Positions 1 through 48,684 of a DNA stretch of 50,153 nt are shown here, piece by piece (within the stretch, counting starts at the first letter, position 1; each line of letters starts with the position of its first letter). Where the stretch lies: the NCBI GenBank assembly GCA_048213135.1, contig PS015202.1, forward strand, positions 10,935-61,087, in the 5' to 3' direction. The DNA comes from Reclinomonas americana ATCC 50394. Lineage: Eukaryota. Under the pieces are notes generated by a model. That model saw only the letters and a list, made by a program, of their open reading frames with translations, did not search any database and was not told the DNA's origin. The position numbers and the translations under genes were made by a program.

Positions 1-445
1 CGCACCAGAAGAAGCCGACCAATAAAATGCCAAAGTGTGTGCACAAGAAGGGCACCACCACACACGCCTCTTTCAGCGCCACATTGCGCTTGTCGAATGC
101 GCCACTGTAGAACACAGAGTACACAATCATGGCCGCTGCGTGTGTGTGCGTGCGGATGATGAGTTAGACGCTGTGTGTGTGTGAGAGAGAGAGAGAGAGT
201 GCGCTCACCTAATGCCGAGCCTGCTTGAATCAACGGGAAGAAGAGAATGGTGCTGTAGTGTGTGCTTCGATGTGGTGGTCTCCGTTGCTGTCGACACTGG
301 TGTGAGCGCATGCATGTGTGTGTGTGTGAGTGAGTGGAGACGCAACGTAAATGTAGAAGGCAAAGACTGCCATCACGAGAAAGTAGATGCCATAGCAGAT
401 GGCAAGGACCAGCACACTCCAGTGTGTGAGGTCGATCACCGACAT
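1..445 (-). CDS. Multi-pass membrane protein, 5' part (continues beyond window start)
   Basis: Exons 347-445, 209-296 and <1-135 joined by GT-AG introns give MSVIDLTHWSVLVLAICYGIYFLVMAVFAFYIY|CRQQRRPPHRSTHYSTILFFPLIQAGSAL|AAMIVYSVFYSGAFDKRNVALKEACVVVPFLCTHFGILLVGFFW, with at least three hydrophobic segments. Family not assigned. Confidence 0.65.
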
Positions 446-525
446 TGCAACAAAGACGATCAATGAATGAGAGACGACGGAGGACGCATGCGGGATTGTT
501 CACTTCGTTGTTTTCATGATGGACG

Positions 526-3500
526 TCAGTCGTCTTCGGCAAACACCGCCGAGGAGGCAACCTGAAGAAGAGAGAACTCGTGAGAAGTGCACGGAAGGCA
601 GTCAGTGACGGCCACCACGGAACCTGATCGGCGTCGATTGCTGCGACATCACAACAAGTCAGTTTAGCGACTCGTTCAACAAGCACACAGACAAAAGGAA
701 ACACGGCAACGCACCCGCCGTGTGCATCATGGCGTACCGGAGCTTGGACTCGAGGACAGCTGCAGCGTAGTGTTGGTGAGGAAACACGACAAAAGACACG
801 GTTCACCGTCGTGGACTAAGTGCCTCACACCTTTCGAAGGGTACTTGGCCAGGTCGAGAGTGAAGAAGCACGTGTGCGACGCCGGCAACGGCATGTCGCC
901 CTCGGCATCAACATCTGTGTGTGGCCATTTGTGTGAGGCAGTGGCAAAAATGCAGCAGGTGCCAGCTGCGCGAAATACGAAACTTGCGCCGTATCGTTCG
1001 AGTACGTTCAAGCGAAGTCCTTGCGTCGACGGCGACATGCGTGACTGGCCAGACACGAAGCGCAGAAGCAGACAGCGCTCTTCCGGGGACCACTCGCGCA
1101 TCATCTCCCAGAACCAGTTGATTACTGGACCGAGACTGGAGTCGGCACTGGACTTGCTCTGCGTTGCTCGCCCGGTTCAGACAAGGCACGCAGCGAACCG
1201 CAACACGCGCGCACTGTAATCACAAGCTGCTCACCTTCAGCATGTCAACATCAACGTCAGGTGAGCCGCACAGCGCCACCTCGAGGCCCTCCGGCGTGCA
1301 GTAGTCCACCAGCAGGCGTCGCTCGCCCGTCGACACGGCAAAGAAACCGCGGCGCACGGCTGCCATTTGCGCGTCACACTCGTGGATGCGTGCTTGCACC
1401 ACCAAGTCGATGTAGTCACGCAAGTTGGCCCACGTGACAGGCGTGTTGGCACCGTCGGGGATGAGCTCGACTGAGCTTCCGTCCGACAGCGGACACTCGA
1501 AATTGCACTCGCCGAGCAACTCTTCCACCGAGGTCGAGTGCGCCATGACGGATTCCGCGTGAGAGCGCAACAGCTCAAGCCAGCGCGCAACGCATGCGTC
1601 AGTGGCCACAACATCGGCTTCAGTCAGCGGCTGACCGAGCTGCATATACCATCAACCCAAAGTGAGCGCCACCGCATGTAGAGCACACGACCCAGCACCG
1701 TACGAACCAGTGCCTTCCAGAACGACGGTGCCATGTTCAACGGCAGCACTTGCGAGGCCTTTTGAGCGAGACCAAGGAACGTGCCAACGCGCTCAAAGTT
1801 GCGCATGTCGACAGCAGATGTGCTCGAGGCTCGCAACAGGTAACGATCGCGATACGCACCCGTTTGTGTGCGACCTGCGGCCGATGATCATGTATGAGCA
1901 CTGGAAGGCGTGACAGCGCTTCCTCAACAACTGTCGCACACACACACACATGCGTACCGTTGGGACACAAGCACAGGAGCGGCAACAGGCGCTCGTCCAT
2001 GAGCTCCATCGTCACTTCCGAAAACAGTTCGCGGGTGAGCCCTCCACCATCCACTCCACCCTCGCCAACAAAGTCCACAGAGAACGAGACGAGGCCGGTG
2101 GTGCCGCCTTGCTTTTCCAGCTGCGCAAACAGCTGCTCAAAGCAAGTGCGGTCTGTTGCCGAGACCGGAGCAAGCGGATTCTCAGAGATTGCTGCGTACA
2201 GCACGCAATCGTACAGTTAGTTGTGTGCCCCACTCCTTTTCCCGATTTCCTCTCGCAACTCACCGCTTCGCAGACGCTGCGCGGAGACGCGATTGATCTT
2301 GACCTCCGTGTAGGTGATGTCTTCAGCTTGCGTGCTGGTGAACCAGCTGCTCATGGTCTGCGACAGGTTTTGGCGTCCGATGAGGCGCAATGCACTCTCC
2401 ATCAGCCGCTCCATGGACGGCACTGGCACAGTGTCGGGCACATTAGCGGCAGAGAAACGAGCCATTGGTATCACATACAGCCAGATTCTGATGGCCCACA
2501 GCGTGGATATGATCAGGTGCAACCGGTGCATGACGACTCGCTGCGGTACCACCGGCTGCGATGCACACAACGCGTCGGGGGCAAGTGAGACACTTGGCAG
2601 AATCGAATTGCGCGAGAACAGCAGGGCACACAAGACCAACCTGACCCGACTGCGTTGGAAAGACGACGCACACACCGTCGTAGTCTGTGAACAGAGAGCA
2701 CAGCGCACGCAAGCAGGTCGGAGGCCGGGACAATGGCAGCTGCTCCATCGCTGTCTCCACTGTCTGCCACACGGCAGACTCGAATGTGCCAGGCAGTGGC
2801 TGTGTGCTGCGCAATCGTTAGAAGAGATGAACAATCAGAGAAGCGAGCGCTTTTGACGTACCACGTGCGCGCCCACTCCGCGTGTCGCCGATGCAAGACC
2901 GCGGCCACTTCACCGACATTGGTCCAGTCCACTGCAGACGACGCAGGTGCCAGTTGCAAATCACGTGCAATCTCGGTGCCGTAGCACTCGCCGGTGTACG
3001 GCAAGCACGGCGTACAGTCGTAAATCGAATCTGTCACGCTGGCAGCACCGAGCAATCGCAGTAGACCCGGCAAGCGATCCATGGCCATGCGCAGTCGCCG
3101 ACCTGCATGCACCTCACGAAGATTGGAAGGAATATTCACGTAGCACGAGGACAGCGAGACGCACAGCTTGGATCCGGCGACTTGCCCATGAGCATGCCGG
3201 TCGAGGGTCGCACAAGCAGTGAATCGGCGGGCACGTACAACGCGAACGGCTTGATGTTGAGAGGTCGGTCGTCGCTGGTGAGTGCCGACTCTGGCACATC
3301 AGCAGGTGACAGCCAACGATTCGCATGCGTAGGGATGAGCTTCAGTGTTGCCACCGGCCTGCACCACGCACACACCATCAGTACATGCACAGAAAACTGT
3401 GTGCGAGAGGACAACCACGCGTACCCGTGCGCCACAGCCACAACAAATGACGGCAGCCAGCCGAAACAAGTGTCGTTGCCCATTTCGTCGTCCACCTGTC

Positions 3501-6500
3501 CCACGAGTTTGGGCTGCCATACGTGGTACAGATCGCCCGGTTCCGGCCCATCCGCAGGGTAAGCGTCGGCCAGCGCGAGACGGACTGTCAATGCGCGCGT
3601 TTCAATACTGCTGCCATTGCGACGACGACAACAACAACAACAGAGTACTGCAAGACGACGCAACGAGTGAGCTTGCGTGCTCGTTCGGCATGGTCGAGAG
3701 TTCGCCACTGACGAATGCCGGCAAGCACTGCGTCACGGTCCTTGTCGTCGAATGCATCACACGGGTCGGTGCTTGCCGCAGCTAGTTCGGCCTCCGACAT
3801 CTCGGTCCAGCGCTTAACTGCGCAGTTTCAAGTGAGCGAAGGGAAGGTCCCTCCCGCGTCACTTCCCTGCCGTCACTCACCAGTCGCCAGCAGCTGATAG
3901 ATGTTGTTTTCTTCGCCCAGCGCAGCCTCCAACAAGGTCTCCGGAGAATGATTGCCAGGTGCAGGGTCGAAGCGATGATCGATAATGGCGTGTGCACCAG
4001 CCGCCAGGAATGCAGCGAGCACCGACCGCGGCAACAACTCCGTGTCCATCTGCCATGCATGGGAAGGTGAGAGGACCGTGGCGGTGAACGTGTGCGCGCA
4101 CGCGTTTGGCAATCACGCACATCGTTGGCCAGCACCTCCACGAGCCGATGGACAGGCGACTGCCCGCAGCACATGCTGTGCTGCGTCGGATCTGCGCCCA
4201 GTTCCACCATCTCCAACAGCAGATCGCGGTACTTTTCGTCCTCCTCCGGCGTGTGCTCACTGTTGACCCACTCGTTAAAGACATCGATCAGCGGCAACTC
4301 GCGCGTGAGTGTCGGAGTGTTCAGCACACGCTGTGTGTACACTGGAGACAACAAATAATGTGAGCAGATGGCACTTTGCACACAAAAGGCGGTGCAGCGT
4401 ACCTGGGTCATTCAGTTCGCGAAGTTGCTGCATTTGCTCCGCAGAATAGGCGATCGCACTGCTCGTCGTGAACGGATCTCTGTAGGCTCCACCGCCCACA
4501 AAGTGCATCTACGTATTGATGCCATTCTCACACTGAGCAAACACAACGCAGATTGACATTCCGACTAAACCATGCGTACCATGAGTGTGGGATCCACGCT
4601 GGCCGCACATTCCACTCTCAACTGCGCCGGCTGCTCCACGCCTTCTTCAGTTTCGACCACAACGGCTGCGATGCGCTCATCAGTTCAGCAGAGCCACCAC
4701 AATCTCCACCCACAAAGAGAGAGAGCAGCAGACCAACAAGGAACACGTCCGCGTCGGGGTTGTACAAGTTCACTCTGTTCTCCACGCCGGCTCCATGGAG
4801 AAGCCACACTTGGGACTTTACACCGAGCGTGCTATCTGCAAACGTGGGGACGACTGAGATCAGTGCATGTGTTTGCGCAACAGAGGTGCTTGAATTCATA
4901 CCATTCGGCTCGAAGAGTGGCTCCAGCGAGACTGAGTAATTGCCAAAGTGTGCGGTGACGCACTTGTCACCACTCCACACACGACCCTTGCGATCGAGTT
5001 CGTACACAAGATCCCTGCCTTGTGAGGTGAGTGCCAAGAGAACGCCATCCACCTTGTTGGATCTGTAACTTCACCTTCGTTCCGTAAGCAGCTCACGCGG
5101 TGTTGGCAAGAACGACTCCTCCACGTTCAACCAGCAGATTGTGCCGGCAGCGACATCTGACTGCAAGATAAAGTGCTGGCCATCATAGGAATTTCGCACA
5201 ACAAACGCTGCATGTAAAACACAGTGAAAGCGAGAAGAGTGGTCATCGGGAAAGAAGAGGTACGCACGAAGTGATGTGAACGGCACATGCAGTTGTCGAC
5301 TGGGTGGCAGGTAGCGGAACGACGGACGACGGAATAGCGGGTTGTCGATGCCGAACGAGTGCATTCGGAACGTGATGAGATCAGACAGTTGGCGCACAGG
5401 CGGATCGGCCAGCACACCCTCCACCACAAAGTCACTGCTGAGCGCCACGCACACCTCGGCACGCGCCGTTCGTGTCGCCTGCAGTGTGCGGTGAGAGGAG
5501 TTCACCAGACATCAGCATGCATCTCACCACACCTTGGCCAACTCGATCCACATTCTCTCCTCCGGTGGCGTCGATGAGGAATTCAACAGACACTTGCGAT
5601 ACAACGATGCAGCTGTCAGCGCAAAGCGGTACAGAGGTGCCTTGAGCCACGTCAGCTGCGCAGGGGTGGGCGGAGGGGGTAAGATATGTGAGCAGGCCGA
5701 CTGAATATGAACACACACGAGTGGCGGCGCAGTCACGCACTCGACGGAAGAACTCCGCTGCAACCTCCAGTCGATCCATGAAACGCGAAGATAGGATTCG
5801 ATCGGGACACTTGAACATGTACCCTACAGCGCGAGCTCAGTCCATCAGCTCAGTTTGGAAGCTTGCACTCTCACATCGATGAGTGACGCACGTTCTGTGG
5901 TAATGAGAACAAACTCGTAGAGTTGCCAGTCGAACTGGCATTGTGCGGCCCCTTTCGCGGTCGACAAACAGAGCAGCAGATCAAAGTGCTCCTCCGAATA
6001 GAGCAGGTCATCGAGCGCTGCGTCGCCTACTCGACACGACAACGTTAGCTCGAGAAGGAGGCCGCAGCAATATATCCACACAAACCCGAATCGAGAAGCT
6101 CGAGAATCACGCTGCAGGCCAAGAACGACTTGCAACGATTGTGCACATGCCAGCCCTCTGGCACTCTTGTCGATTTTAAAGAACGGTGAGAGTCGATCGC
6201 CCGAGGCAAGCAACACAAGTCCACTCACTTGTCGAAGAGCCAACGTGCCGACACTCGCTTCGACACAGTCATGAATGCCCAATTGACCAAGTTCTGCACC
6301 GCAGCCGGGCTGCCGTAACGCAAGATACGCTGCACGACGGGTCGCACCGCCTCCGAGTAGCCTGCAGTACCACCCGTCAGCAAAGGCAACATGCACTCAA
6401 ATCACAGCACACTCAAGGCACTCGCTCCCACCTGCCACCGTCATCGACTCGTACATCAGTGCGGAGAGCAGTGTTTCCATGTTTTCTTCGGTGAGCACAC

Positions 6501-9500
6501 TCTCCGCCACGCACTGGAGCAGGCGCAGTACGGTGCGACGGGCGTAGCCATGCACCACTTCACACGCATGCTTGTTGACAGCCGCACACTGACCCGATGA
6601 GGCCACCAACTCTGTGCGGGTGACACCACCGGTTGAGTATCAATCACCACCTGCAGTACGCCTGCAATGAAACACGCACCACGCCAATACTTGGACCGCG
6701 AGCGCGAGAATGTGCCACCTTCGCCCATATCGTCATTGCTTTCCTGGAGCTCTTCGCCAAGAGCCACTTTCCAGTCGCCCTACACACACCGATTTGAACT
6801 GCGAGCTCACGCATAGACGACGACGACTCCGTGCACCAACCAGCAAAGTACGCCATCGCTCCGAAGGATTGGAAAAGACACTGCCGACGACGGCTGTCGC
6901 CGGCTCGTCGTTCACGGCCTCACTGCCACGCACAGACATGAGGTGTTCGTGGCCATGAACGCAGAGAACTGCACACGCTCAAACCTTGCTGGAGGAGCAT
7001 CTTCGTCTTCACCGCGCTCGACTTCTCCGCCTTCGCCATCGTCGTCGTCGCCGCCACCATCCTCCTCATCGCCACCGCTGCCGTCCTCGTCGGTGCACTG
7101 ACTGGAGGTGTCGGTGGCGAACTGTGGCTTTTCGGTCGTGATCATGCAGGTGATGTCGATATTGGCGGCCTCGAAATCGTATTCCAACTCCTCGTCACCA
7201 TAGTCGGCCTCATCTGGACCCTGTAGCAGCGCACCGCGGTCAACACCTATTCCACCACCAAAATGACTTGCCAAAATGACGAAACATCACTGCCCGTGAC
7301 CACGTCGTAGCAGTCCTGATAGCGCCCTTGGTCGTAGTTGGTGGCGGAGAAGAAAGAGTACAAGTCGGAAGCCAACGTAAGCTGGGCAAGGGATGCGCAC
7401 AATCAATGTGTGAGAGAGGGAGAAGAAAACGCAAGCCAGTGAACCTCGACATAGGTGGCTGCAGCGTCGCCAAGTCCAGCGGCACTCAAGGACGCGAGAA
7501 GCCCAGTGAGTGCATCGTCGCCTTCAGTCGCCGGTTCAAGCGAGTCTTCGTCGACACAGTAATTTGAGTCCAGCCACTTGGGAAGCGGACTCGGATGCAG
7601 TTGCTGCACCACCATGCGCGACGACTTGACAACCTTGCACGCGCGGAGAACAGTGGTCGTAACCGGACCCTCGAACAGGTCGACTGGTACCGGGTACTGT
7701 GCAGGCTGCTTGGCGAGCTCAGCAATCGACTGACACAACGCGTTGGTTTCTGGGCACGAGAAAAGAGTGAGCGTGCGCGCAGAGAAACATCGATCTGCAA
7801 TTCGCCACCGCTCACATACCAGCAGCGTGACGTGCCACAACACTGCCAGCGAGGCCACCATCTGCCGGTGTCGACAATACAATGTTCGAAACAAAGCGCA
7901 ACGCACCAACACACAGCAAGGTGCTCCACGTGCTGCTCGCGGCCGAGTCTACTTCTGGTCGCGAGGAGCGACACCAGTGCGAGCACACTTGGCTGCAAGC
8001 CGCGTACAAGCTGCCGAGCTCACTCTCCATCAACCACGTCACCGAGAAGGGTGTCTGTCATGACTGCCCGTGAAAAAAAAACAAGAGTTGACGGTGCAGA
8101 ACAGAATACAGGAGTGTACGCACCATTTCGGAGAACCGCAGTCGCAGTACCGACTGCGTACGTCGTTGCAAATCAGTGCTGAGCAAACTCGCCGTCGCGT
8201 CACGATCCAAGTAGGCCAGCAGCACGTTGGACGTCGCAGGATCCGCCCTGCTGCGTACCACACCGCCAAAGGTCAATTGCATGCCGTCGCCAGCTGCACA
8301 CGATACAGTCAGGTACGCTGCTCCGTGGCGACAGAACGCACGACACAGCGCACGCAACTGATGGCCATCAGTGCCGCACAGCCCAGTAGAATGGCACGAG
8401 GGCAGTCCCCATCGGTGCCTGCACCAGTGGACGCACGGGCACCACGGACAATCAGGCCGCACAGGTAGCCAACGACCTGGACGACGGTCACATAGGTTTT
8501 GTTGATAACATTCCAACAACCGAGATTCACAGTGCGCGAAGCACACCTCGGATCGCCAGCTCTCCCGTTCCATCATGGATCGCAGCACGGCACCGGCTTG
8601 TGCGCTGACTGTGCGTGCCAAGTCACCATCCTTGGCTCGATCTGTCGTCATGTAAGAGACGGGTAGTAGTAGTGGATGAAACAACCAAATTCTGGCGTCT
8701 GACCTTCATCATCCTCCGACTCGCCATCGTTGACTAGGACCGGCAGGAGACCACAAGCAACAAGCTCCAGCAGTGCAGAAGCGATGAGCACTAGCGGAGA
8801 GCTTTCGGGCTCGCCATCCAGCGCCGGGGCATCGGCAGGCCGGTGCTGACGCACCGACGAGGCCAGCTCAACAACTATTGCACACAAACACACATAAAAC
8901 AGAGACTGTGTGAGTGGACCAGCACGTGCACTTTGGGAGATCAAGGAAACGCACGATCAAATGACGGCAGCAATCGCTTAAACAAGAAGAGCATTCGGTA
9001 GGTGACAGAAGAGTGGGACACTTCGGCCAGCAGTCGACCGCAAATGGCAACTCTGTCGGCGCCTTGCGTCAGCATCGTAGCCACGTCCTCCTCATCCGCC
9101 GCGAACATGGATGACGGGTCCGATAGGAACACAGACGGAGTGACGGCTGGTACAGGCGTGGAGGCCGCAGATGGGGCTGCAGGTGCGCCGGCCTGTGTCA
9201 CTCTGCTAATGAGTACCTCGTGTGCACATTCTGCTCTGCAAGAACAACAATAACATCGCACCTCGTCCAGCGCAAAGTGCACAATACAAAACAGAATCGA
9301 TGCCTGCGACGACGCGCACAAATCAGCGGCGCACAAGCTCACAAACAGGCAATCCGATTGCACGCAACAGGCACTTGCGCATCGGCCTCAAGTCCACCGA
9401 ACAGACTGACCGACGCATATGCCACCTTGGCAATCTGCTGCACAAGGACGCTGGCTGAAGGCCGGTACCCGCGCATGCGCTTCTTGTTCCTGGTCAGTGG

Positions 9501-15582: not shown

Positions 15583-16749
<1,167 letters not shown>

Positions 16750-17050
16750 GTTTTCTTTGGAAGGAAAAAGGCAGAGGTTGTGATCGCTCACAAGAAGGGA
16801 GAGAAAATGTGGATGAATTGAGTGACAATGCGATCGAAGGCGAGCACGAAACGGGAGCGAAAAGTGGCGGCAAAGCGGTGTTCTCGCAGCCTTGTTTCTA
16901 GACACGGCTGTAGTGCGGCGGCCTACAGAAGGTGAAACGCGCGCGTTTCCTTTCGTGGATTGGAGTGTATGGTGTGACAGCAGCTGTCAGATTCAAGTGT
17001 CGGTGTTCATTGCATATGCATGCGGTTATTCGACGCGCAGCTCTACACAC

Positions 17051-21087: not shown

Positions 21088-21155
21088 CTTCTCTCTCTCT
21101 CACACACGTCGCCGTCCGATCTGTCCTGATCTTCTCTCGTCTCTTGCGCGAAAGA
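21088..21155. promoter_or_regulatory. Putative bidirectional promoter / overlapping 5' region
   Basis: Only 68 bp between divergent start codons (21087 on -, 21156 on +). Confidence 0.55.
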
Positions 21156-35400: not shown

Positions 35401-35402
<2 letters not shown>

Positions 35403-35433
35403 GTTCACTCACAATCCAACTGCCTGCGCTCAG

Positions 35434-37364
35434 GTGGCCTATCACGCGTGAGCGTTGTCTCCGCAGTGTACCTGTGCTTATGGTGGACGAGGCTGACAGT
35501 GCATGCGTTGCAGATGCGATGTTGCGTGTGTGTCTGTGTCACATAAATTCCGACTGATGCTGACGAAACACGCACACACACTCTCTCGCACTCTCAGGGC
35601 GACACATGCGCATGGCCTTTGCTGTGATACCGCTGTGTGTGTCGATACTAGTGCTGTGCGGGCAGTGCATTGCGCAGGTTTGCCTCTTGCATTGGTGTGC
35701 ATTGATGATACCCGCAGCACTCAGTCACTCTCACTCGCCACACAGTCACTGTTCGCTGTGCGCTCGTGGCAGTCGACCTCACACTGGCTCTCGATTCTCG
35801 GCTTCCCCGTGCTCAGTGCCTCCTCCACACAGTGGTGGCGCATTGTGTTGTTCACTGTTCCCGACTTTCTCATTCTATTGGCGGCGATCGTGCTGCTGGT
35901 GTTTGTACGGCAAGGCATCATTGCGCGTCGAGAGCTGTCCAAGCTGGCACTGGCCGCCAATGCACCTGTGCTGCCTGCGGGTGTGGAGGTCGTTGAGGGC
36001 GTGATGGTCGGCGAAGGGGAGGACGACGACGATGATGATTACGATGACGATGATGATCATGGTGGTGGTGGTGGGGGTGGTGGTGACGGCGATGAGGACA
36101 CGGATGAGGGGCACATGGACAGCTTCTCAGACGATGATCATCACCACGTTCTCATGGACGATGATGGAGACGACGGGCGCGGCGGCGGTAGTGTGCGCAC
36201 TGGCGACGATTACGGAGTGGCGATTGATGTGTTTGGCGATGCGGGCGGCGGCAGCGTGACGGGTGAATCGGAGGCAGCCAGGCGGAACCGGCGTGCATTG
36301 GCGCGGCGATCGGCGGCCATGCAGCGCCAGATTCGTAAGCATGCTCTGCGTGCTGCGGCGTACAGCAGCGACGATGCTGCCGACGACTATCACCGCCATT
36401 TGGCGCAGTCGACCGGCGATGTGCGCATCCCGCTGTTGCGTGCCGGCGCCTCTGCTGCCTCCGTGGGCGTCGCCGGTGGTATGGACAGTGTGCATCACAG
36501 CCAGACAGCTCCGTTGTTGCTCTCCGACGAGGCCGTGGTCGATGTTCTCGCCCCGCCACCCACCAGTGGAACGGGAGGCGCCACTCTGGCCCTTGTCGGC
36601 GTGATGGCTGCCGATCCGGGCACCGATGAGCCCGACGGTGGCTTGCGAGCTGCGCACAGCCGCGCATTTGGTGCCGTGTTGTCGGTGATGGCGCTGGTGC
36701 TGCTGTGTCTGTTTGCGTGCATATCACCGTCGGTGCTCGGAATGCCACTGGTCGCCGTCATCGTCTACGAAATCTGCTGGGGTTGCTTCCGCGACGAATC
36801 CATCACCAGTCACATGCGGAATTGGCGCACGCTGTTCGATCAATGGTGNNNNNNNNNNNNNNNNNNNNNNNNNNNNNNNNNNNNNNNNNNNNNNNNNNNN
36901 NNNNNNNNNNNNNNNNNNNNNNNNNNNNNNNNNNNNNNNNNNNNNNNNNNNNNNNNNNNNNNNNNNNNNNNNNNNNNNNNNNNNNNNNNNNNNNNNNNNN
37001 NNNNNNNNNNNNNNNNNNNNNNNNNNNNNNNNNNNNNNNNNNNNNNNNNNNNNNNNNNNNNNNNNNNNNNNNNNNNNNNNNNNNNNNNNNNNNNNNNNNN
37101 NNNNNNNNNNNNNNNNNNNNNNNNNNNNNNNNNNNNNNNNNNNNNNNNNNNNNNNNNNNNNNNNNNNNNNNNNNNNNNNNNNNNNNNNNNNNNNNNNNNN
37201 NNNNNNNNNNNNNNNNNNNNNNNNNNNNNNNNNNNNNNNNNNNNNNNNNNNNNNNNNNNNNNNNNNNNNNNNNNNNNNNNNNNNNNNNNNNNNNNNNNNN
37301 NNNNNNNNNNNNNNNNNNNNNNNNNNNNNNNNNNNNNNNNNNNNNNNNNNNNNNNNNNNNNNNN

Positions 37365-37396
<32 letters not shown>

Positions 37397-40300
37397 ATGT
37401 GTGTGTGCATCTGACCATCTAATCAGAGTGTGTGTTCTCTTCGTGTGTGTGAGAGAGTGCGTGCGACCTACTGACCAATGCCCATGTGTGGCAGGCTCTG
37501 GCGCGGCATCTTCCTGTACCTGGTGGCTGTATCGGCCGTGGTATACGGCGTGCAGTTCAGCGACTCACTTGGCTACAGTCATGTTGCACGCGTCTTTGGA
37601 CTGGGTACGACAGCTCCTCTCTCTCTCTCTGTGCTTCGTTGTCGTCAACAAACTGACTGCCTGCACGGTTCGCAGCGAATGTTTACTCGTCGCCGACCAA
37701 TGCACACTGGCCGCAAGCTCCCTGGCAACTGTACACGTGCTACAGCGCGTTGTACCTGCTCACCGCCATTGTGCGTTCCACCTCGTGTCCCCGTTTGTTG
37801 CATGCGGCAGCTGATTTTGCTTGGTGCACAGATGGGAGTGCAAACGGCGCGCTGCTCCGTGGGAGCCTACTCTCCCGTTGGCAATCCGCGAGTGGGCGAA
37901 CTTGGCTCGTGAGTAATGATGCATCATCCTGCCTGGCTGATTGGTTGCTGCTAACTGGTCTTGTGACAGATCGACGCGATCGCCATTCGCGCGCCTGATG
38001 GCAGCCTCAGCTGTGGCCACGGCCTACTGGGTGAGCATGCTGTTGGTCTTCCTGTTGCTTCCCAGTCTGGCGTCCTGGGTGGGGGCGGCGGTGGCGGTGG
38101 CGGCCATTGCCGGTGCCGCATACAGGCTCGTCCGACGACTGCTGCTTCCGCTCCTCACACTCATCGCGGTGATGGTGGTCATCTGCAACATTCCCGGTGT
38201 CCTTGGTGCTGTGCGTCATCCGTCGTCGCTGTGCTGGTTGATCTGTGTGTATGTGTGTGTGCGCGCGCGCGAGTGATAATAATGATCGTCCCTGGTCGTG
38301 CAGATCGACTCGCATGAAGTGTCGTCACTCGGCTACTTTTCCGATCCACAGCGCTCTGTGGCGTCCTGTGTGCTGCTGCTGGTCCTCTCGGTGGGCTGTA
38401 CCGACGCTCACTTGGCCGTGTGGACGGGTACGTTTATCTCTGCATCATTTGGGCTTGGTTATTACCTCGCGACAAACACAATGCGCAGTTGAGTCGGCCG
38501 CACAAAAACGGCTCACCGGCGCACTCGATGCTCATGCGAGTGTCATGCGACGGTACGCGTCTCTTGCGTATGTTGTCTTCTGTGCTGAGAAGTTCTCATC
38601 CTCCTCTCGCAGCACGACCCGCATGATGAAAGTACTGCGGTGGCTCGGACGCTTCCCGAAACTGTTTGCCGACTTTGCGCTCGTGTCGCTCATGGTATTT
38701 GCCTCGATGGCCACCACCGGCATCTTTTCGATGGTGTACTTTGTGTTGGTGTTGATTGCCAGTTGCGTGAAGTGAGAGATCAAGGGAAAAGATGCACAAC
38801 TGACTCACCGCTGGTTGGCGTCACGCAGTTGCCCTTCCGGATCCCATCTCGCTCAGTGGCGGCGTGGAGATGAATCTGTGGGTCATTGTGATTGCCTGGT
38901 TCAACAACATCTTCCTGTTCCTGCTCGGCATCGTCAACACGCTCTTGTCGGACGCGCAACTGAATGCGTTGCCGCCGTGGACCAGCCTCGGTCGCTACCG
39001 CAACGTGTGGAGCGGACTCGCTCCATACTTGCTGGTCAATGCCGTCCTGCTGTTGTCACGCTGGTTCGACGCACTCGCCCGGTGGAGCGATGGGCGCATC
39101 GGCGGTTCGCTGGCCGCCATTGCGCCACGGACGCGCCACCTATCGTGGGATCTGGTGCTGAGTTTCCGCTGGCTTCGGTGCGTCTGGTGTCGCGCGTACC
39201 TGTCACACTGTCTGCTGCTGATGATCGTCGTGTTGCGCAGGCGTGTGTTGGACCTGTCGGCGTTTGTCGCCATTCTGCTACTCGGCATTCTCCCATCGCA
39301 GCACACAGTGCCGTGCATGGTGTACACGTTCATCGCCTTTACGTGGATGCTGTGCTTCACATTCGGGTGGAAGTACGCCGTGGTGAACCCATTTGTGTGG
39401 TTCACGATGTTGGTCATTGTCGGTGAGCGACCACTGCTGCACATCGTCATCGTCGTCGCGTCGTGTTCGCTCAAATATTTCTCGCGCCTGCCTGCAGGAT
39501 TGCTTGCTGCGTTCCAGGCCGTGTATCAGATTCCTCCCGTCACCGACTGGATGGACTCGTGGTCGAACGGCATGCTGGCCGAGTGGGGTCTCTCGACGCC
39601 CGGCGGCAGCGGCTACGACAGCCAGCAGAGCATTTGGGATCGCGCGTCGCTGCTCGTGCCCACTGTTGTTGTTTTTATCGTGTGCGCCTTCAAGGCACAC
39701 CACTCGGTGCCAAAGTGGCGCGCGTGGCGCGAGTCACTCCGACGTGGCCCGGCACCGCTCGGTTTGTTTGTGGAGCTCGCTCCTGAGTCCCAGTTTTTTC
39801 GTGTGACTGACACACCACCGCATCACCAGAGCGCACAGGCTCAACTTCATCATCGTCGGCAGCCGCTGCCGCCGCCGCCAGCACCTACAATACGTTCTCC
39901 ATGCCCACCTCGGTGCCGCCGACCGATGCACCCTCGAAGGTGCTGCTGGCTGTGGACCGGCAGCGAAGAGGTCTGCTTCATGTGCTCTCTTATATAAGCG
40001 TCCTCGTTCTCATCTGCTGACGGATATTAACACACAAGAAGGGTCGTCGGCCTCCGAAGTATCCATCAACGATAGCGACGGCAACAAACACCGCCGCGGT
40101 ACCGAGGCGTGGCCCGTTGGTGCGGTGGCCATGGCGGACGACGAAGTTGATGAGGCGGGCAAGCTGCCGCCGCCTGACGAGCGCAAAGAGAAACTGGCGA
40201 ACTGCTGCACGAACACGTGGGCCTGGCTGCGCCGAATCGTCGCCGACTTGTCGTATCCGGTGCGTGTGTATGTGCTCATCCCTCCCCCCATTCACTCTCG

Positions 40301-43300
40301 CATCTCTCACTGTTGGCGACAGGTCTCGCGACTGCTCTTCCTGATTCTCATGCTTTTCGCCGGCCTGGATCACATCTCCTTGTTTTCGTTTGTTGGCTAC
40401 ATTGTTCCAGGCGTGTGCATGCGTGCGTTGCTCTTGCCGGCCATTGGGTGAGACTGACTGTGTCGCGCGCAGTGTTCATTTTCCTGCTGTCAAACCTCAA
40501 CTTTGGTCTCCGTGTGGCACAACTGGTCGGCACATACACTGTGGTGTGTGTGGCTGTCCATGCGCTGCTCTTTGTCCCCTGTTTCCGCTCTTGTTGATTT
40601 GCTCGCCACCCTGCAGATATTTGTGACGGCATTCTACGCCTTCCAGTTGCCGTCCATGAGCTCGCACTCGGACTCCACGTGGCGATGGATCGGCCTGTAC
40701 TCGCAGGACTCTGCCGCCACCTCGTACTCCGTGTTCATCCTCCCATACCTCTTCTTGATGCTCTCCGGCGTCATTGTGCAGCGCACTCGTGCACCTTCTG
40801 TTGCGCTCCTCCGTCGTTGCGCTGTCTAATCCATTTTTGTGCTGCTCACTTTCGCCTCCCGGACAGCGCGATTACATTCGCTTTGAAACCATGCTGATGT
40901 CGGCATTGCGCAACCTGGTTCACCGCTTCTCGTTTGAGGTGCGCCTTGTCGCCTTCTTTTGTGATCACAGCTTCACTGACGAATCGCTCTCGTGCAGATC
41001 ATGGCGCTGGGTGTGCTCCTGCTGGCCGGCGCGCTTGCCAACGCGTTCGGCGTGTTGCTCTTTGTCGTGGTGTGGGTGACGGCGTACACTCGAGCGTTTT
41101 CCACCACTGGCCGTTGCGTGTGTGGCCTGCGATCGCCATGGAGTGCGTCGAATCGTGCTTCACTCATCTGTCGTGATTGGTGCAGGTTGGATTGTGTTTG
41201 CCTGGTTCTTCGCCCTGTTCATCTTTTTCCAGTACCTCATGGTGCTTGGTCTTCCCAACAAGAGTGCGTCACGCAGTGTGTCTCTCTTTATGTCTTGTGT
41301 CACCTACCGACGTGTGCATGCTGCGCAGTTTTCTTGTCGGACATTGATCCGCGGTGGACTGCGTGGCTCGGCTTCCGACCGCATACCACAGACATTTTTG
41401 TTGGTGCGTTCCCGAAAGTGATCGTCGCTAGGCTCAAGAATGCTGCTTACAACAAGCGATGGACACAGGCGAGTTCGCGGCACTCTTCCTGGTGGCCTTC
41501 CACATCAAGCTGAAGCGGTCGCCGTACGAGGTGAAGCCCTACTTGGACGATATTCGACCGCAAGATGTGCACCGTTGGTGAGAATGCGTTGTGAATGCCC
41601 ACGTCGGGCCGCTTGGCGAAAACTCATGTTGCTGTCCCCTTGCAGGTCCGGGTGGACGCACACGGTGATCTGGTTGCTTCGCCTGTCGCCAACTATAGTG
41701 CTGCTGGTTATGCTCGGCACGGCTGCGCTCTTTTACAATATTCTTGCGCTGGCGGTGGTGGTTGTCGCACTCGTGCTCTTGCACGTTGGTGAGCGCCTGC
41801 ACTATCGGTACACATTCTACTGGAGTGGCCTGGTCGGCTCCCTGTTCTTTGTGTCCATCCTCGCACAGCTGGCGTATCAGACGCCGATCGGTGTGTTTGA
41901 GTTGGTGGCCCGAGCTCTCGTCAATGCTCTGGCTCACAGAACATGATTGCACGCAGAGGTGTTCGACTACGCTGCCAACTTGTCGGACTGGCAAAACGTT
42001 ATCGGGTTGTACATGTTCCCGCAGTTCTTCCGCATCTGGTACCCCGATCGGTGTGTCGCTTCTCAGCAAACCAACTCGTTGCTCTTCGTGCTGCTCACAC
42101 GCGTGGACGCAGGACACCGGGAGAGTTCTCTCGCAAAGACATGTTCTGGGTGCAGGCAAGTGGTGGCCAACACGCGCTGCTGAAGAGGCACATCACTCAC
42201 TCACTTGCCCCGATGTGCAGGTCACGATGCTGGTGTTGTGGTACTGTCAGCGACGTGCCTACGACTCGAAAGTGTACAAGCTGCTCATGGCCAAGTTGCG
42301 CGACGAACGACGACACACGCGCAAGAACGCCGTGCAGTCGGTGCGCGACGACTATGCCAGTCTGCAGCGCGAGAAGGCCAAGGGTTTGTGTATTCCCCCT
42401 TTTCTCTCTCACTCTGCGTGCACTGCGTACTCATTTGTGCTTCGCAGTCGCCGAGGAGAAGCGTGGTCGACGTGAGCGACTCGATCGTGTGCGACTGATG
42501 TACCTCCGTCGTGTGCCGATTGAGGCGATTGAGATGGAGGCGGCGGAGAGCGCCGAGCCCGATTACATTGTGGGAAGCGGTGGCAGTGACGGGAACGCGG
42601 TACCACCCAGTGCACTCGTTGTGGCAAGCTCGGTGGCAAGTGCCGGCAGTGTCGGCGAGGCATCCACGCCAGCAGTGATGGAAGCGCGCTCGCCGTGGGT
42701 GGAACCCGCGGCTACCGTGCCGCAACTGTACACCGAATCGGGATCACCGCAGGCGTCACCGGCGCCTGTCGTGTCCGTGAGTGGTGTTGGCGCCATGAGC
42801 AGCGCTCTGCTTGCTCCACCGCCGCAGCAGCTCAGCTATCAACGAAGTTGCATGCGTCCGTGTTTGCTTCCGCGTGTTAGATTACTTGATCGCTGATTGC
42901 TCCACGATGCAGGTGGCGGATCGATTAGCGATACCCCGTCGCTGACCCGCCGCTCCATGTCGCGCCGCTTCTCCACGACTGGTGAGTGGAGGTGGAGGTG
43001 CAGTGATGCGTGCGGGAGTGAGGTTGCTCACCTCGGCTGCTTGTTGCTTGTAGAGTACCTCCATCCGGGCACAGAGTTTGACGATGCACCACCGACGGCG
43101 CGCTCGCTGCGCGGCAGTGAGGCCACCGATGCCGATCTGGCGCCCGAAAGCAAGCCCAAGCGCATCATTCGTCGCAGTGTCCGCTTCATCTCGCGCAACA
43201 CGCACTGGCTGTGCTACTTTACCTTTATCCTGTGCCTGCTGCTCAACCAGGACCTCATCAGCACGGTGTACGCACTCGCCCTCTTCTTGTATGTGCTGTT

Positions 43301-46300
43301 GGAGAACACCGAGTCACCGCAGGTTTGTCTTGATTGTAGCGTGTTGATTGTGCCTTGAGCTGACGACATTCTGTGCTGTTGCAGTTCTGGCAAGGCATGA
43401 TCATTTACACCGACTTGGTGATCCTTATCAAGTACCTGTTCCAGCTGCCGATCCTGTGCATCTGTCACGGTGTGGCCGGCCATTCGTATCATCTGCACAG
43501 CTACTGCGAGGATCACGTGGCGCAGTGCTCGCTGCACCCGGAGGACGAGGTGTGATCTTCTGTGCCTTGCGATGTGTGTGTGAGGTGTGCTCATCGGATG
43601 CTCCTCAGCCGGTGGTGTGGAACGTGGATCAAATCATTGGTCTGACGGCGACCGACAGCAGCTTCCTGCTGCAGATTCTCGGACCCATTCTTGTGCTTCT
43701 GTCGCTTCTCGTGCACCGCATGTCGCTACTGCAACGGGTGCGTCAGCAATCACGCTCTGTCCTCACTTGCATCATCATCACCACTGACCATCATCTTCAC
43801 GTGCAGGGATTGTGGACGTTCTCGGCCAAGGATCGTCTGGAGTGCCTCAAGTTGGCTGATCCCGCCAAGTTTCGTCCTTTCTTCTCTCACGCGTAGATTT
43901 TCGAATGCTGACCGACGTTGCTGCACGACAGGGACTGTGGCGCCGTTCGTGGCTACTTCCGACTGCTGTTCGACGATCAGATGAAGCACGGCCACGATTT
44001 CCACTTTGCCACCATGTGTCTCGGTATGCGCATGTGTGTGCAGAAGGAGTCTGTTGGACACTGAGCTGACACGATGATACACGCACACAGAGCTCGCCTC
44101 GCTGCTGTACATGCTCTTCTTCTACCCGTTCATCACCTTGTCGAACGAGGGCATCTCCACGAGTCGCATCTCCAGCACCCTCGTGCTGCTGCTGCTCGCT
44201 CAAGTGTTCCTCATTTGTTTAGAACGAGTGGTGCGTGTGTGAGTGTGCTGAGAGAGGGAGACATTCAAGAGATGTGCACGTATGCTGACCTTGTGTGTGG
44301 TGACGCGCACCAGTTATACCTGCTGCGAAGTATTCGTGCCAAGTACGTGTTATACATGGTCGAGGTCTTCGGCTACATCTACGTCTTCTTCTTCCGCGTA
44401 CCAGCCAACTCGCCAGCCGCATTTGGGCACAATGGCGCGTTGGTATTCCTGGCCCTCCTCAAGTTCTCGTTCTTGCTCCTGGCTGGCTTGCAGGTGCGTT
44501 ATTTCGTGCGCACACCGCAGTGCGTAAAAGTCAGTCGACTCACGCTGGCGACCACGAGCAGATTCGCCACGGATACCCGTTTGTGACCAAGGGCTACTTC
44601 CTCATGCGGTCGCCGTCGCAGTGGAATTATGTGGCCAGTTGCGTGCCGGTTACTGTGCTTCCCAATCGTCCCCCGCCCCGCTGACTCTTGTCCCTGCTAC
44701 GCACAGCCATGGCATACAATGCCATTCCGTTTGCACTCGAGCTGTTGCGCTGCCGTCGTCACATGCACTCCATGCACTGCTGTTTTCTCACTGCCCTTGC
44801 GCGGCGCAGACGCATGTTACTGGACTGGACATTCACCAAGACAACGCTGCGCATGGACCAGTGGCTCGAGGTCGAAGACATTCACTTTATTGCCTTTTTG
44901 CGACACTGCGGTACGTATCGCCCATACCATGTGTGTTATGACGACGATTCCTCACCGGCGCGCCGCAGACAATGTGTGGGAAACGCATCTCAATCGCAAG
45001 ACGGGCACTCCACGCCCGAAGCACCAAAAAGTGTTCCAGGGCTTCATGTTCTTCCTCGGCATCCTCATTCTGCTCTTCTTCCCGCTCATCTTCTTCTCCA
45101 ATCTCAACCCGACGGTCACCTCGGATCCGATTCAGACCGCGTCGGCCACCATTGGTGAGAGTGACAAAGCAACAAGCTCTTCTGCTCCACGATCACTCAC
45201 ACCGGTTCACAGGTCTCGAGGGCTACGAGGCGTTCTATCAGGGCTCCGCCTTGCCCGATCCACCACAACTATCCAAGGTACAACGCTTAAACATCGAGGC
45301 CATGTATCCGTCATTACGACTCGGCAGCGACCTGTTAGTGCAGTACGCGCAGTTAGGCACGGTGCGTATGCGTGCGATGTGAAGGTGTGTCGCCTTCTGT
45401 GTTTGACAAGGATGTGGCAGAACTCGGAGACGTATTGGACCATCACGCCACCTGCGCTGGAGGATCTCATTGAATTCCTCAGCCGATCGCGACAACAGTC
45501 GTCGCCAACGCCCACTTTGACCATTAGCTACACATTCAAGCGGTGCGCGATGATGTTGTCGAGTCGCTCGGTTTCCCCGCACGTTCTTTCTCACGCATTG
45601 TGTGTGCAGTCATGGCCCACCGGGCCACTCGGTTCTCAGCAGTCAGATCCGCCACCAGCTCACCGAGCAAGAGCAGGCGGGCCTGCTGGCGGTACTGCAG
45701 GCCACCGACACCGAGGCGCACACTGTCAAACTGACGCAGTTCTACCCGCCATTTGTGATACTGCCGGCGATTGAGTCGCCCGGCACTTTCACTGGATCAC
45801 CGAGCGTCGACTGCGAGCTGACACTGGTGCCGGCCAGCGTGGCTCGCTACTGGCGGCTGGAGTGCGTCGGCTTTGACGAGAACGGCAATCCCGACAAATC
45901 GCCCTTCTTCATGACGGCTTCCGAGGCCACACCGTCGGGCGTGGGCTCACTTGCCACCTACTCGATCATCGCCTTCTACGCCACCTTTGTGCTGGCCGTT
46001 GGACGCTTCCTGCGACTGTGGGTCGGCGGGCGTGCGCAACGCCTCATCGTAACCTGTGCGTCTGGCGGTCTTGCGCTCCCTCCCCTCGTTCTCTCACCCG
46101 CTCCGCGCACACACGCACAGCATTGCCCAACTGCACCCGCATTCTCCAGTTCATCAAGGATCTGTACAGTGCCCGCGAGGACGGAGACCTGGAGTTGCGT
46201 TGGCGAAGCGAGCGAGAGTCTTGTTCTCGCACCCATCACTGACAACGACGACGCGCACAGGCTGGAAGAGGAATTGTTTATCGAGTTAATCACGTTATAC

Positions 46301-46351
46301 CGCTCACCCGAGCGCCTACTCACCATGACTAGCAAGATAAAAGCCGAGTGA
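35434..46351 (+). CDS. PIEZO: Piezo-family mechanosensitive channel; first exon missing, internal gap 36849-37364
   Basis: Many TM exons; N-terminal RVSVVSAVYL..FTVPDFLIL; PFEW motif AIPFALELRMLLDWTFTKTTLRMDQWLEVEDI; outer helix GILILLFFPLIFFS; WTITPP; C-terminus SIIAFYATFVLAVGRFLR..LPNCTRILQFIKDLYSAREDGDLELEEELFIELITLYRSPERLL. Confidence 0.95.
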
Positions 46352-46954
46352 GTGAGCAGGAATGAACGCAGTAATCATCTTTCATCCTCCTCCTCCTCTT
46401 CTTCTTCCTCTTCTTCCTCTTCCGCATCGCCTCTGCTCCGCACTGCATGCACCAATCGCTCGAATCCTTCGCGATATGTGATGGGAGGGAACACCTCACG
46501 CAGAGCATCGCTGGGCCGAATGAGAGCCGATCGCGACACAGAGAAGGAGTGATGGTGAGCGGAAGGAGAAGACAGGCGACGATGTGGACGCAGTGTCGAT
46601 TGCACCCACTGCAACAAGTGCGTGTGAGTGACAGAGAGGAGAGTGTGGAGAGAGAGTGCGTAACTTGTGCCAAGGCGGTGCTCCAGGAGAGCAGCAGTGC
46701 TTGCATGGAGAGTATCGATTGAGAGTTGTCCTGTGTGTGATTCTGGTGTTCTTGCATGCAACGCGCACGAGTCTTGTCGCGACATCTTGTCGACTGTGAG
46801 GTGCGTGTGTGTAACAGAGAGAGAATCAGAAGAGATGCTGACTGTGTGTGCACAGGCGAGCATGTCTGCATTGCATGCGGAAGCGGTCAGTGTCGTTGTG
46901 TGCGGCGAGCGTGTATGCAGTGAGCTGACTGCTCTCTCTCTCTTACGCACACAG

Positions 46955-48684
46955 ATGGCTGCGATTCCTGCAGAGGGCTACACAGTGGTGTGTATCTCTC
47001 GCTTGCCTATGTGATGAGCAGTCAATCACATGCATGTTGTGTGCATGCAGACTGAGGGCGAACTGCTGAGCGAACTGTGCGAGAATGGGTGTCTGGCGTT
47101 GACTCTGAATCGCCCCAAGGCCCTCAACGCACTCACTGTGGGTGCGGAATGGCATGCTGTGCCTGCTCCACGCGCTTGCTTGCTCAACTCAGCGCACACA
47201 CACACACAGACATGATTGAGACCATGTTGGCGCTGTTGACACGCGCGTTGCACGATGATCGCGTGAAGATGGTGTTTGTGAGAGGCACGGGCGATCGTGC
47301 GTTCTGCGCCGGTGGTGATATCAAGTATCTGTACAACGCACCGAGCGATGCGGAGCGGAGGGAGGCGGCCAAGTACTTTTTCAGTCGCGAGTATCGCCTC
47401 GACTATCTCATTTCCATGTTGCGTACGCACCCGTACCCGCCCATCCGCCCGCCCAGCTGCCACCACCATTCTCACTTGGTCTGGCCCTCGTAGCTTCCCG
47501 AAGCCGTACATAAGTCTGCTGGATGGCATCACCATGGGCGGTGGTGTCGGCATCTCGGTGCACGGTCGATTCCGCATCGCCACCGAGCGTTTCCTCTTTG
47601 CCATGCCCGAGTCGGCCATTGGCCTGTTTCCGGATGTCGGTGGCTCGTACTTTCTCGCGCACTGCCCCGGCTACACGGGTCTGTGCTTGGGTCTGACCGG
47701 GCGTCGCATCAAGGCCGCCGATGCACTGTACTTGGGCATTGTGACGCACGTCATGTCGCACGACTATGTGGAGAGCTTGGAGGTGACGTCTCACCACTAC
47801 CAGTGCTTCCTTGCGTGACTGACACATTGCTCTCCTGTGTGCTTTGCAGACGGCTCTGCGCACGTGGGAGCTGCGCGAGGCGACGAATGAGGTGGTCGAC
47901 GAGTTCCTGCAGCGCTTCTCGGCGCCGCCGGCCTCGCCCGCACCCATGGAGGCGGAGAGGGAGGAGATTGACGCCATCTTTGGGCATCGATCGTTGCGTG
48001 GCATCGAGACCGCTGCGTTGCGCTCCGACAAGTATCGACAGGCGTTCACCACGCAGTGCCCGAGCAGCATGTTGGTGCGTGATCAGGGGAAGGGGGAAGG
48101 AGAGGGAAACGAAATGAGAGCGAAGGAAGTGGAGGAGGGCAGAGAGATTCAGGACGGGAGGGGGAAGGAAGTGGAGGAGGGGGAAAAGGGAGGGGATGGG
48201 AGAGGACGGGAGGGGACAGCACGGAATGGGATGGAAGAGAAATGAGGAAGATGCGGTTGCAAGAGAAGGGCAGACGAAGCAGCAAACAAAGAATGGACGA
48301 GATTAAGGGGAGCCTGAGACAAGCGATGCTCACCTTCCTCCCCATGTCACAGGTGGCATTCCGCACCTTCAATCGCGTCCGCGAGGAGCGCATGTCACTG
48401 GGCGACGCACTGCAGATGGAGCTGGCGTTGGCGGTGAATCTGACGGCGCGACGGGACTTTGTGGAGGGCGTGCGTGCCGCCGTGGTCGACAAGAGCCACC
48501 AGCCAAGATGGACAATGATCAATCTCGATGGGACCGGTGAGCAGGCCCTTGTTTTCTCTCTCTCTCTCCCTCTGTTTTTCGCCTGTTTTCAATCCACGAC
48601 GCAGACTCCAAATTCCCCAGCGACATGCACGAACTGGACACCCTGTTCGAGGCACCTGATTTGCGCGTCGATATGGACTACTGA
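46955..48684 (+). CDS. HIBCH: 3-hydroxyisobutyryl-CoA hydrolase (crotonase family)
   Basis: [92 protein letters not shown]; spliced stop at 48682-48684. ATG 46955 directly follows an acceptor-like CAG, so an upstream exon is possible. Confidence 0.93.

Follow-up and report, generated by a model that had tools for sequence, protein, structure and literature searches.

We analysed a 50,153-base stretch of the genome of Reclinomonas americana ATCC 50394 (contig PS015202.1, positions 10,935 to 61,087, forward strand), referred to below as the window and numbered from its own first base, for an unusual kind of 5' splice site (donor) in which the intron begins with GTTGCG(T). The window is 57% G+C outside its seven N gaps, contains many (GT)n tracts, and carries very dense, short introns throughout (median about 70 nt). 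A gene map was made from Pfam matches on stop-to-stop open reading frames (ORFs). On the minus strand it comprises a large HECT ligase gene with its end near 600, a cathepsin/Tectonin gene (about 16100-18566), a gene with a BTK motif at its end (18825-20900), and an intronless WD40 ORF of 1405 codons (26873-31087); on the plus strand lie a Maf gene (21150-22260), an fn3 gene, a Piezo gene (about 37400-46400), and a HIBCH gene (47046-48700). Splice junctions in these genes were judged by protein homology together with sequence statistics.

An initial annotation of this DNA had listed 22 sites as members of an abundant donor class, GTTGCG(T)/GTTGAGT, in which the normal consensus is displaced by one base. 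Each of the 22 listed sites has the motif on the strand assigned to it, 21 as GTTGCG and 1 as GTTGAG, and on the minus strand the first G of the donor falls at 346, 3664, 9368, 17806, 19089, 19194, 19265, 19526, 19596, 20102, and 20762. GTTGCG occurs 61 times in the window, both strands together. Its heptamer GTTGCGT was found 24 times in the sense and 3 times in the antisense orientation of the genes (p = 5e-5, with a rough strand map), and GGTGCGT, which is the optimal ordinary donor with its exon-end G included, showed a ratio of 23 to 2. With (GT)n and microsatellite words set aside, these are the top two heptamers of the window by sense excess, and the strand map was the sole gene-model input to the test.

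Junctions were fixed by homology in three of the genes. Per junction, all frame-compatible, stop-free GT-AG pairs between two in-frame anchors were enumerated, and the spliced peptide was scored against homologous proteins (HIBCH, 40; Piezo, 9; Maf, 1). Five of six GTTGCG junctions ranked first among their frame-compatible pairs, and the sixth ranked second by one unit. The four junctions that the initial annotation had considered to be fixed by protein motifs (44744, 46194, 21943, and 47418) all held as the top GT-AG candidates, and two further ones were obtained, 44638 as the best and 21359 as co-best. In the Piezo gene (a slash marks the junction), intron 44744..44809 (donor GTTGCGCTG, 66 nt, phase 2, PFALEL/RMLLDW) came first of 5 GT-AG candidates (116.1 vs 87.8) and first of 29 when GC donors were admitted as well (next best, 105.1); intron 46194..46260 (donor GTTGCGTTG, 67 nt, phase 2, DLE/LEEEL) came first of 12 (96.4 vs 80.4) and of 26 (next best, 86.8); and intron 44638..44706 (donor GTTGCGTGC, 69 nt, phase 1) came first of 2 (42.7 vs 30.1) and of 5 (42.7 vs 35.3). 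The Piezo profile coordinates run free of indels across all three junctions: they are unbroken over exons 44559-44639 and 44811-44909, positions 2395-2420 and 2419-2444 abut at the flanks of 46194, and PFALELRMLLDW and DLELEEEL align without a gap to all 9 Piezo homologues. At the three Piezo sites tested, the GC donor at +3, which is always in frame, scored 7-11 units lower.

HIBCH intron 2 (47418..47493, donor GTTGCGTAC, 76 nt, phase 2, LISI/FPKP) ranked first of 93 GT-AG candidates (458.5 vs 447.4). Maf intron 5 (21943..21999, donor GTTGCGCG, 57 nt, phase 2, GESL/DKAGAYG) ranked first of 21 (116 vs 103); its flanking exons correspond to Pfam Maf positions 116-143 and 146-173, and the join supplies exactly the two residues between them. 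The second-ranked case was Maf intron 2 (21359..21416, donor GTTGCGTAC, 58 nt, phase 2; second of 28, 51 vs 52), where a rival, GTACGA at +5 with another acceptor, gives a product 3 residues longer. The GTTGCG join at 21359 yields a spacing equal to that in the alignment with the solved Maf domain of ASMTL, and it was also picked by a gene model blind to donor sequence (see below). When the end dinucleotides were left free, the same intron length scored best at five of the six junctions, with the GT-AG pair among the equal-scoring slides or within 2.3 units of them; at 47418 the best scores were reached only by 76-nt introns and the GT-AG pair lay within 2.3 units of the best, and at 21359 other intron lengths scored higher. 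Splicing out the six introns from Maf, Piezo, and HIBCH gives a continuous frame that matches the homologues. Nine ordinary donors were verified by the same method, all on the plus strand: 47142 (GTGCGG), 47783 (GTGACG), and 48075 (GTGCGT) in HIBCH, and 44494 (GTGCGT), 44911 (GTACGT), 45155 (GTGAGA), 45362 (GTGCGT), 45543 (GTGCGC), and 46056 (GTGCGT) in Piezo. Over the middle of the Piezo gene the profile was too weak to fix the junctions at 38762, 40800, and 41113.

A Viterbi gene model that combined codon usage with a Markov chain for introns, an acceptor matrix, and a prior on intron length was applied to the window, and in its final form it was exact on 55-73% of the known junctions. Earlier versions were discarded: one with codon usage trained on the WD40 ORF alone was useless (7 introns), and those with geometric intron lengths predicted many false long introns. 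In the blind version the donor information was reduced to GT and the first 10 intron bases were neutralised. This version predicted 105 introns, of which 11 began with GTGCGT (5.8-fold over 2986 background GT sites), 7 with GTTGCG (38 of the 2986 background sites; 5.2-fold, p = 4e-4), and 5 with GTGAGT (6.5-fold). With a donor hexamer table learned from the data, 108 introns were predicted and GTTGCG (9) again followed GTGCGT (19), ahead of GTGAGT (5) and GTTCGT (4). The annotation's description of a major donor class is borne out in the window, where GTTGCG is the second commonest donor hexamer even in the blind model and its strand bias is level with that of GGTGCGT.

Forcing versus forbidding each listed donor changed the model score by +8.4 to -12.4 nats, and 11 of the 22 sites lay within 3 nats. 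Four sites were chosen or tolerated by the model. The best supported of all was the Piezo-gene intron 38762..38828 (donor GTTGCGTGA, 67 nt, +8.4 nats), a choice of the blind model that lies just beyond the end of a weak Piezo profile match at 38757. The blind model also chose the fn3-gene intron 34254..34329 (plus strand, donor GTTGCGTCT, 76 nt, +2.8 nats) and the Piezo-gene intron 41113..41185 (donor GTTGCGTGT, 73 nt, +0.8 nats), at whose acceptor a Piezo profile match begins (41182). The fourth, in the HECT-ligase gene (3585..3664, minus strand, donor GTTGCGTCG, 80 nt), was a choice of the trained model and scored -0.7 nats in the blind one.

Five further GTTGCG donors lie in a chain of twelve microexons on the minus strand (19090-20023), eleven of 3 nt and one of 6 nt, spaced 64-105 nt apart, between an exon ending ...FHPGA (donor 20102) and an exon starting WTCC... 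(18956; acceptor 18957). The repeating unit is a YAG acceptor, 3 nt (once 6 nt), and a donor hexamer. The twelve donor slots hold GTTGCG five times, GTGAGT three times, and GTATGT, GTGCGT, GTTTGT, and GTACGA once each, so that GTTGCG is, as the initial annotation had observed, frequent in this array, and it is interchangeable there with canonical donors. All 12 non-overlapping spacers between acceptor and donor in the 1.2-kb stretch of the chain measure 3 or 6 nt; in the window outside the chain, spacers of 0-12 nt are evenly spread, with 7-19 at each length. One overlapping reading of 8 nt exists within the chain, from a GTGAGT at +5 of a GTTGCG (19526), and only under the GTTGCG reading are all the microexons multiples of three. 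The five GTTGCG introns in the chain have the YAG-3 nt-donor structure at 19093..19194 (donor att/GTTGCGCCG), 19435..19526 (ctc/GTTGCGTGAGT), and 19530..19596 (cct/GTTGCGTTT, 67 nt), the 6-nt variant of it at 19198..19265 (ctcacc/GTTGCGTGA, 68 nt), where the forced model gives the same intron, and again the 3-nt form in the last intron (18957..19089, caa/GTTGCGTTC), for which the acceptor may be either 18957, at the start of the BTK-motif exon, or 19019. The candidate first intron of the chain, 20024..20102, has the donor GTTGCGTCG directly after ...FHPGA, and the model was about neutral towards it (-1.5 nats).

The chain would add 13 codons between ...FHPGA and WTCC... of the BTK-type zinc motif. 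The exon downstream corresponds to positions 12-26 of the Pfam BTK motif, and the profile positions upstream of it leave, we presume, room for about 5 codons at the chain; the loop would therefore have to be longer in this protein, unless part of the microexons are skipped. Searches of the PDB with the two exons that flank the chain gave no significant match, and Pfam recognised the downstream half only.

Taken by line of support, 15 of the 22 listed sites were independently supported (six by homology, five by a microexon slot, and four by the model). Of the at least 20 introns counted earlier, these 15 have backing, and the other seven sites (346, 9368, 17806, 20102, 20762, 35521, and 40800) are candidates only. 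Within contiguous homology-verified stretches, GTTGCG accounts for 3 of 9 introns in the C-terminal part of Piezo and 1 of 4 in HIBCH. As far as sequence can establish it, GTTGCG is confirmed as a real, abundant donor class that would begin roughly 10-30% of the introns in the window.

The bases around the cut differ between this class and the ordinary donors. The ordinary profile, drawn from the 51 donors with +5G among the 97 introns of at most 200 nt in the trained model, is G/GTGCGT (-1G in 39 of 51, +3G in 35, +4C in 28, and +6T in 38). The listed GTT sites show -1G in 0 of 22, +5C in 21, +6G in 22, and +7T in 18, which agrees with the annotation's account of a class that lacks the usual anchors and carries the same block displaced. 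Its statement that no exon ends in G at these sites proved correct, and the difference from ordinary donors is pronounced (0/22 vs 39/51, Fisher p = 2e-10); it persists when only homology-verified junctions are compared (0/6 GTTGCG vs 8/9 ordinary, p = 0.0014). The two optimal heptamers, /GTTGCGT and G/GTGCGT, differ in a single position, the second base, and the cut in the former lies one base upstream. Together with the frequency of +7T (18/22) against +6T (38/51) and the missing -1G, this one-base difference fits the description of a consensus displaced by +1, from which all of these features would be expected.

In other respects the introns of the two classes resemble each other. Median length in the trained model was 69 nt for GTTGCG introns and 70 nt for the others; a CTNAY branch-like motif, scored as a motif match only, occurred between 8 and 60 nt before the 3' end in 8/9 GTTGCG and 67/88 other introns, at a median distance of 19 nt in both groups. 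All 15 GTT-class introns with a resolved 3' end start with GT and end with AG, mostly as CAG. Length, acceptor, and branch-like motif argue that GTTGCG introns belong to the same spliceosome type as their neighbours. Acceptors are in any case nearly always CAG here (83/88 non-GTTGCG and 8/9 GTTGCG model introns). GTAAGT hardly occurs (4 times, both strands together), and T at +3 is tolerated in the ordinary register too (GTTCGT and GTTTGT; 8 of the 51 donors with +5G).

The limits of the class turned out to be both narrower and wider than first described. GTTGCG is real, and the GTTGAGT form amounts to one ambiguous site, a candidate 68-nt intron at 17739..17806 (minus strand, -1.5 nats). On the other side, HIBCH intron 3 (47783..47849, plus strand, donor gag/GTGACGTC; first of 193 GT-AG candidates, 386.7 vs 377.7) has +6G in place of +5G and retains -1G, and GTGACGT as a word occurs 8 times sense and once antisense. 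GTTTCGT furnished three model-predicted donors and has a ratio of 5 sense to 1 antisense. Apart from the listed sites, donors with +6G, either verified or predicted by the model, were placed at 47783, 21776, and 43869 on the plus strand and at 7285 on the minus strand. GTGACGT and GTTTCGT suggest a wider family of +6G donors in which one extra base before CGT may be tolerated.

We lean towards the interpretation that GTTGCG(T) is a genuine and abundant second 5' splice-site class of GT-AG introns that is recognised in a register shifted by +1, most likely by the 5' end of U1. A change of the second base of the optimal ordinary donor G/GTGCGT to T would produce /GTTGCGT and would shift its sole GT one base to the left, with the cut following the GU. 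Whatever recognises the heptamer, most likely the 5' end of U1 anchored on UGCGU, would be placed identically on both heptamers; in the GTT class it would then lie at +1 relative to the cut, with the usual +5G at +6 and the usual exon-end G becoming the first G of the intron. The cut would subsequently be set at the GU by later steps (U6, U5, Prp8). We infer both the recognising factor and the register from a sequence pattern that this reading fits better than its rivals do. The initial annotation's proposal of a flexible U1/U6 register or of variant snRNAs has the same hypothetical standing.

Several observations weigh against this interpretation. Duplex predictions made with the human U1 5' end as printed in PMC4856993, which may differ from the U1 of this organism, gave weak pairing for the 22 GTT sites (+0.7 to -4.1 kcal/mol); the nine ordinary donors ranged from -1.1 to -8.1 kcal/mol. 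The fuller shifted helix, with A7:+3 together with C4:+6, was predicted at only 3 of the 22 sites, and the pair +6G:C4 at 10. Canonical U1 alone hardly explains the conservation of GCG. Since, in addition, the preferred +4C cannot be paired by standard U1, recognition by an adapted U1 that matches UGCGU, or by some other factor, is a live possibility. The absence of -1G is also less striking against the local background, as -1G occurs at only 9 of 66 unlisted GTTG(C/A)G words (0/22 then has p = 0.04). The base at -1 of the GTT sites is A in 5, T in 11, and C in 6; with A not preferred, nothing here points to additional pairing in the shifted register. The expected analogues are scarce, with 4 occurrences of GTTGAGT and 0 of GTTACGT in the window. 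Finally, the gene model recovers only 6 (blind) or 8 (trained) of 11 homology-verified junctions exactly and disfavours 8 of the 22 sites by at least 5 nats, 5 of them in the microexon chain; microexons cannot be represented in this model.

A change in the splicing RNAs themselves, whether a U1 with a 5' end complementary to the UGCGU core, an additional U1-like paralogue, or a modified U6 box, with the GU tolerated at two distances, is in our estimate unlikely on the present sequence. Were it so, the two donor registers would be a built-in, genome-wide feature and not a rare tolerance, and this may be what lets chains of 3-nt exons be spliced.

Two rivals that keep the junctions where we place them but change how the donor is read were both judged rather improbable. 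In the first, U1 (and U6) would sit normally at +1/+2, one U (+2 or +3) would bulge, and GCGU would pair as +3 to +6. Bulging at +2/+3 has been validated as a register for human U1 (PMC4856993), and, given the two U's, shifted and bulged pairing schemes contain nearly equal numbers of pairs. Donors with an extra nucleotide other than GTT also exist here, and the verified donor gag/GTGACGTC at 47783 is itself predicted to pair with the U1 5' end in bulged form (C9:-1, C8:+1, A7:+2, C4:+6). In a bulge, however, the exon-end G would still pair with C9 of U1, and yet it is missing from all 22 GTT sites while 39 of the 51 ordinary donors have it, whereas the bulge-type GTGACGT donor does retain it; the missing -1G therefore favours the shift over the bulge.

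The second of these rivals assumes a variant or additional small nuclear RNA (snRNA): either the U1 of this organism would have a 5' end complementary to UGCGU, or GUUGCG would be served by an extra U1-like RNA or by a changed U6 box. C is the commonest +4 base in ordinary donors (28/51), GTGCGT outnumbers GTGAGT both in the trained model (19 vs 5) and in the window (107 vs 74, with only 4 copies of GTAAGT), and the +4C and the GTT class both pair poorly with a human-type U1. Against it stand the very wide conservation of the U1 5' end and the possibility that composition alone favours +4C in GC-rich genomes. Length, acceptor, and branch-like features common to GTTGCG and other introns speak against separate machinery, and no U1, U6, or other snRNA gene was found by Rfam anywhere in the window, at the gathering score or at E<=1. 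In Ostreococcus, whose donor consensus is GTGCGTG, altered snRNAs have been put forward as a subject that deserves study (PMC2483917).

That the junctions are misplaced, with the introns starting nearby and GTTGCG enriched as a splicing enhancer or as a coding word for Val-Ala or Leu-Arg, we regard as very improbable. A GT does occur at +5 of every GTTGCGT and a GC at +3 of all of them, half of the sites (11 of 22) are ones between whose alternatives the blind model hardly distinguishes (within 3 nats), and some copies are clearly exonic, such as those at 47993 and 48017 in HIBCH exon 4. Specific rival donors exist at 346, 9368, 17806, 40800, 21359, and 21943. At the candidate donor 341..346 (minus strand, -4.0 nats) the model favours GTCTCC at +5, joined to a different acceptor; 9363..9368 (minus, -3.0 nats) has an in-frame GTGCCT 6 nt upstream, at 9374; the GTTGAGT site at 17806 has an in-frame GTCGCT at 17791 with the same acceptor; and for the Piezo-gene candidate intron 40800..40866 (plus, donor GTTGCGCTC, 67 nt, -7.0 nats) the model prefers an in-frame GTGCAG at 40776, again with the same acceptor. 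Two further candidates were disfavoured by the model, the intron 20689..20762 (minus, donor GTTGCGTGC, 74 nt, -9.0 nats) and the motif at 35521..35526 (plus, -11.1 nats), which adjoins an N gap and a (GT)n tract. The rival hexamers, however, differ from site to site while GTTGCG recurs, and when each listed donor was forbidden its replacement was likewise a different, non-recurring hexamer. In the comparison with homologues the rivals lose by 10-28 score units at 5 sites, the exons of the microexon chain are all multiples of three under the GTTGCG reading alone, and the 24:3 strand bias is on a par with that of GGTGCGT.

A family of introner-like mobile introns with its own donor, which one hexamer common to many short introns of similar length might suggest, was rejected as the least credible of these accounts: the sequence beyond +7 differs at all 22 sites, and none of the 20 largest of at least 60 repeat families across the window is made up of introns, the only repeats found being those of the WD40 coding sequence and tracts of the (GT)n/(CA)n and CAG types. 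U12-type introns, which are defined as the substrates of the minor spliceosome by an extended donor and branch consensus, were likewise rejected, as the donors here consist of GTTGCG followed by varied sequence and Rfam found no minor-spliceosome snRNA in the window. They resemble the present case in forming a second donor class beside a main one, but their defining consensus is absent here and the acceptor, length, and branch-like features are those of the main class.

Shifted and bulged registers have been established experimentally for human U1 (PMC4856993, as for the comparisons with human shifted and bulged sites that follow). The human +1 shifted sites (Roca and Krainer 2009, as cited there) are like those in the window in that they start with GU, have the +5G displaced to +6, and lack both +5G and the exon-end G. 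They differ in being rare and atypical, with long A/U-rich complementarity, whereas here a single GC-rich word, GUUGCG(U), with weak predicted U1 pairing, begins roughly 10-30% of the introns in a 50-kb window. The human bulge +2/+3 and bulge +3 registers, which account for 54-68 and 36-51 of 201,541 sites, respectively, likewise have an extra nucleotide between the GU and the paired block, and GTGACGT at 47783 fits this pattern, but the GTT class is without the -1G that a bulge would keep. Flexible U6 registers have also been proposed for one human tandem donor.

Among other eukaryotes, the Mamiellophyceae Ostreococcus and Micromonas share GTGCGT(G) donors and a CTGAC-like branch sequence with the window, but the available portions of PMC2483917 and PMC3879977 mention no GTTGCG class, and the nearest homologues of the window's Piezo (about 40% identity) come from Andalucia, Percolomonas, and Entosiphon and not from green algae. 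In the tunicate Fritillaria, the usual donor rules are departed from as they are here, in that case genome-wide, and the departure is explained by snRNA modification and splicing factors; 95% of Fritillaria introns escape GT/AG, however, whereas the introns here retain both dinucleotides and depart only in the register of the block that follows (PMC13326754). Literature searches returned, among the matches listed, no report of a GTTGCG donor class, the organism's own literature and supplements lying outside their scope.

The new aspect would thus be the use of a known but rare register as a major donor class. Shifted and bulged U1 registers have so far involved a small fraction of human sites and have been studied mostly in minigenes. 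If a single word in the displaced register does begin something like one intron in ten to one in three, the genome would offer a natural system for studying how the cut site is fixed independently of the position of U1, how far the U1 and U6 contacts can slide, and whether snRNAs co-evolve with the donor consensus. In practical terms, gene finders trained on one donor matrix would misplace GTTGCG junctions, in-frame or out-of-frame; the present gene model, for example, was wrong at 3 to 5 of 11 verified junctions.

In a library of 1.8 billion proteins the nearest Piezo relatives, among them sequences from Andalucia godoyi, Percolomonas, Entosiphon, Entamoeba, and Trichoplax, reached about 40% identity in the best-conserved part. 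A search of representative proteins gave 43 distant Piezo relatives, a 'longer' Piezo protein search gave no match, the HIBCH search listed at least 120 homologues with none from the organism itself, and the Maf search returned one homologue. Neither the organism itself nor a close relative was represented by a protein among the matches in any library searched, and a metagenome scan for relatives with a Piezo exon gave 183 pattern matches, of which 0 were confirmed.

Some minor features of the window were recorded as well. The Maf gene has a probable 72-nt intron at 21499-21570 (plus strand), cag/GTCTCT ... TGCAG, which is a multiple of three in length and has no in-frame stop; if retained, it would encode a Cys-rich insert of 24 residues. 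Its donor is weak, and in-frame rivals lie at 21478 and 21529. Words of the (GT)n type show a strong bias towards the sense orientation of the genes (on the rough strand map, GTGTGTG occurs 150 times in sense and 44 times in antisense), and because several donors and acceptors abut GT or CA tracts the junction calls at these are ambiguous. The annotation's site 340 (donor G at 346) does not lie in the HECT gene but after the first exon of a separate small gene (444-346, minus strand) whose product starts MSVIDLTHWSVLVLAICYG... and looks membrane-spanning. The WD40 ORF is intronless while the other genes of the window carry an intron about every 100-200 nt; its codon usage predicts that of the other genes poorly, and it contains 14 WD40 stretches in tandem units of 126 nt that are about 65% alike.

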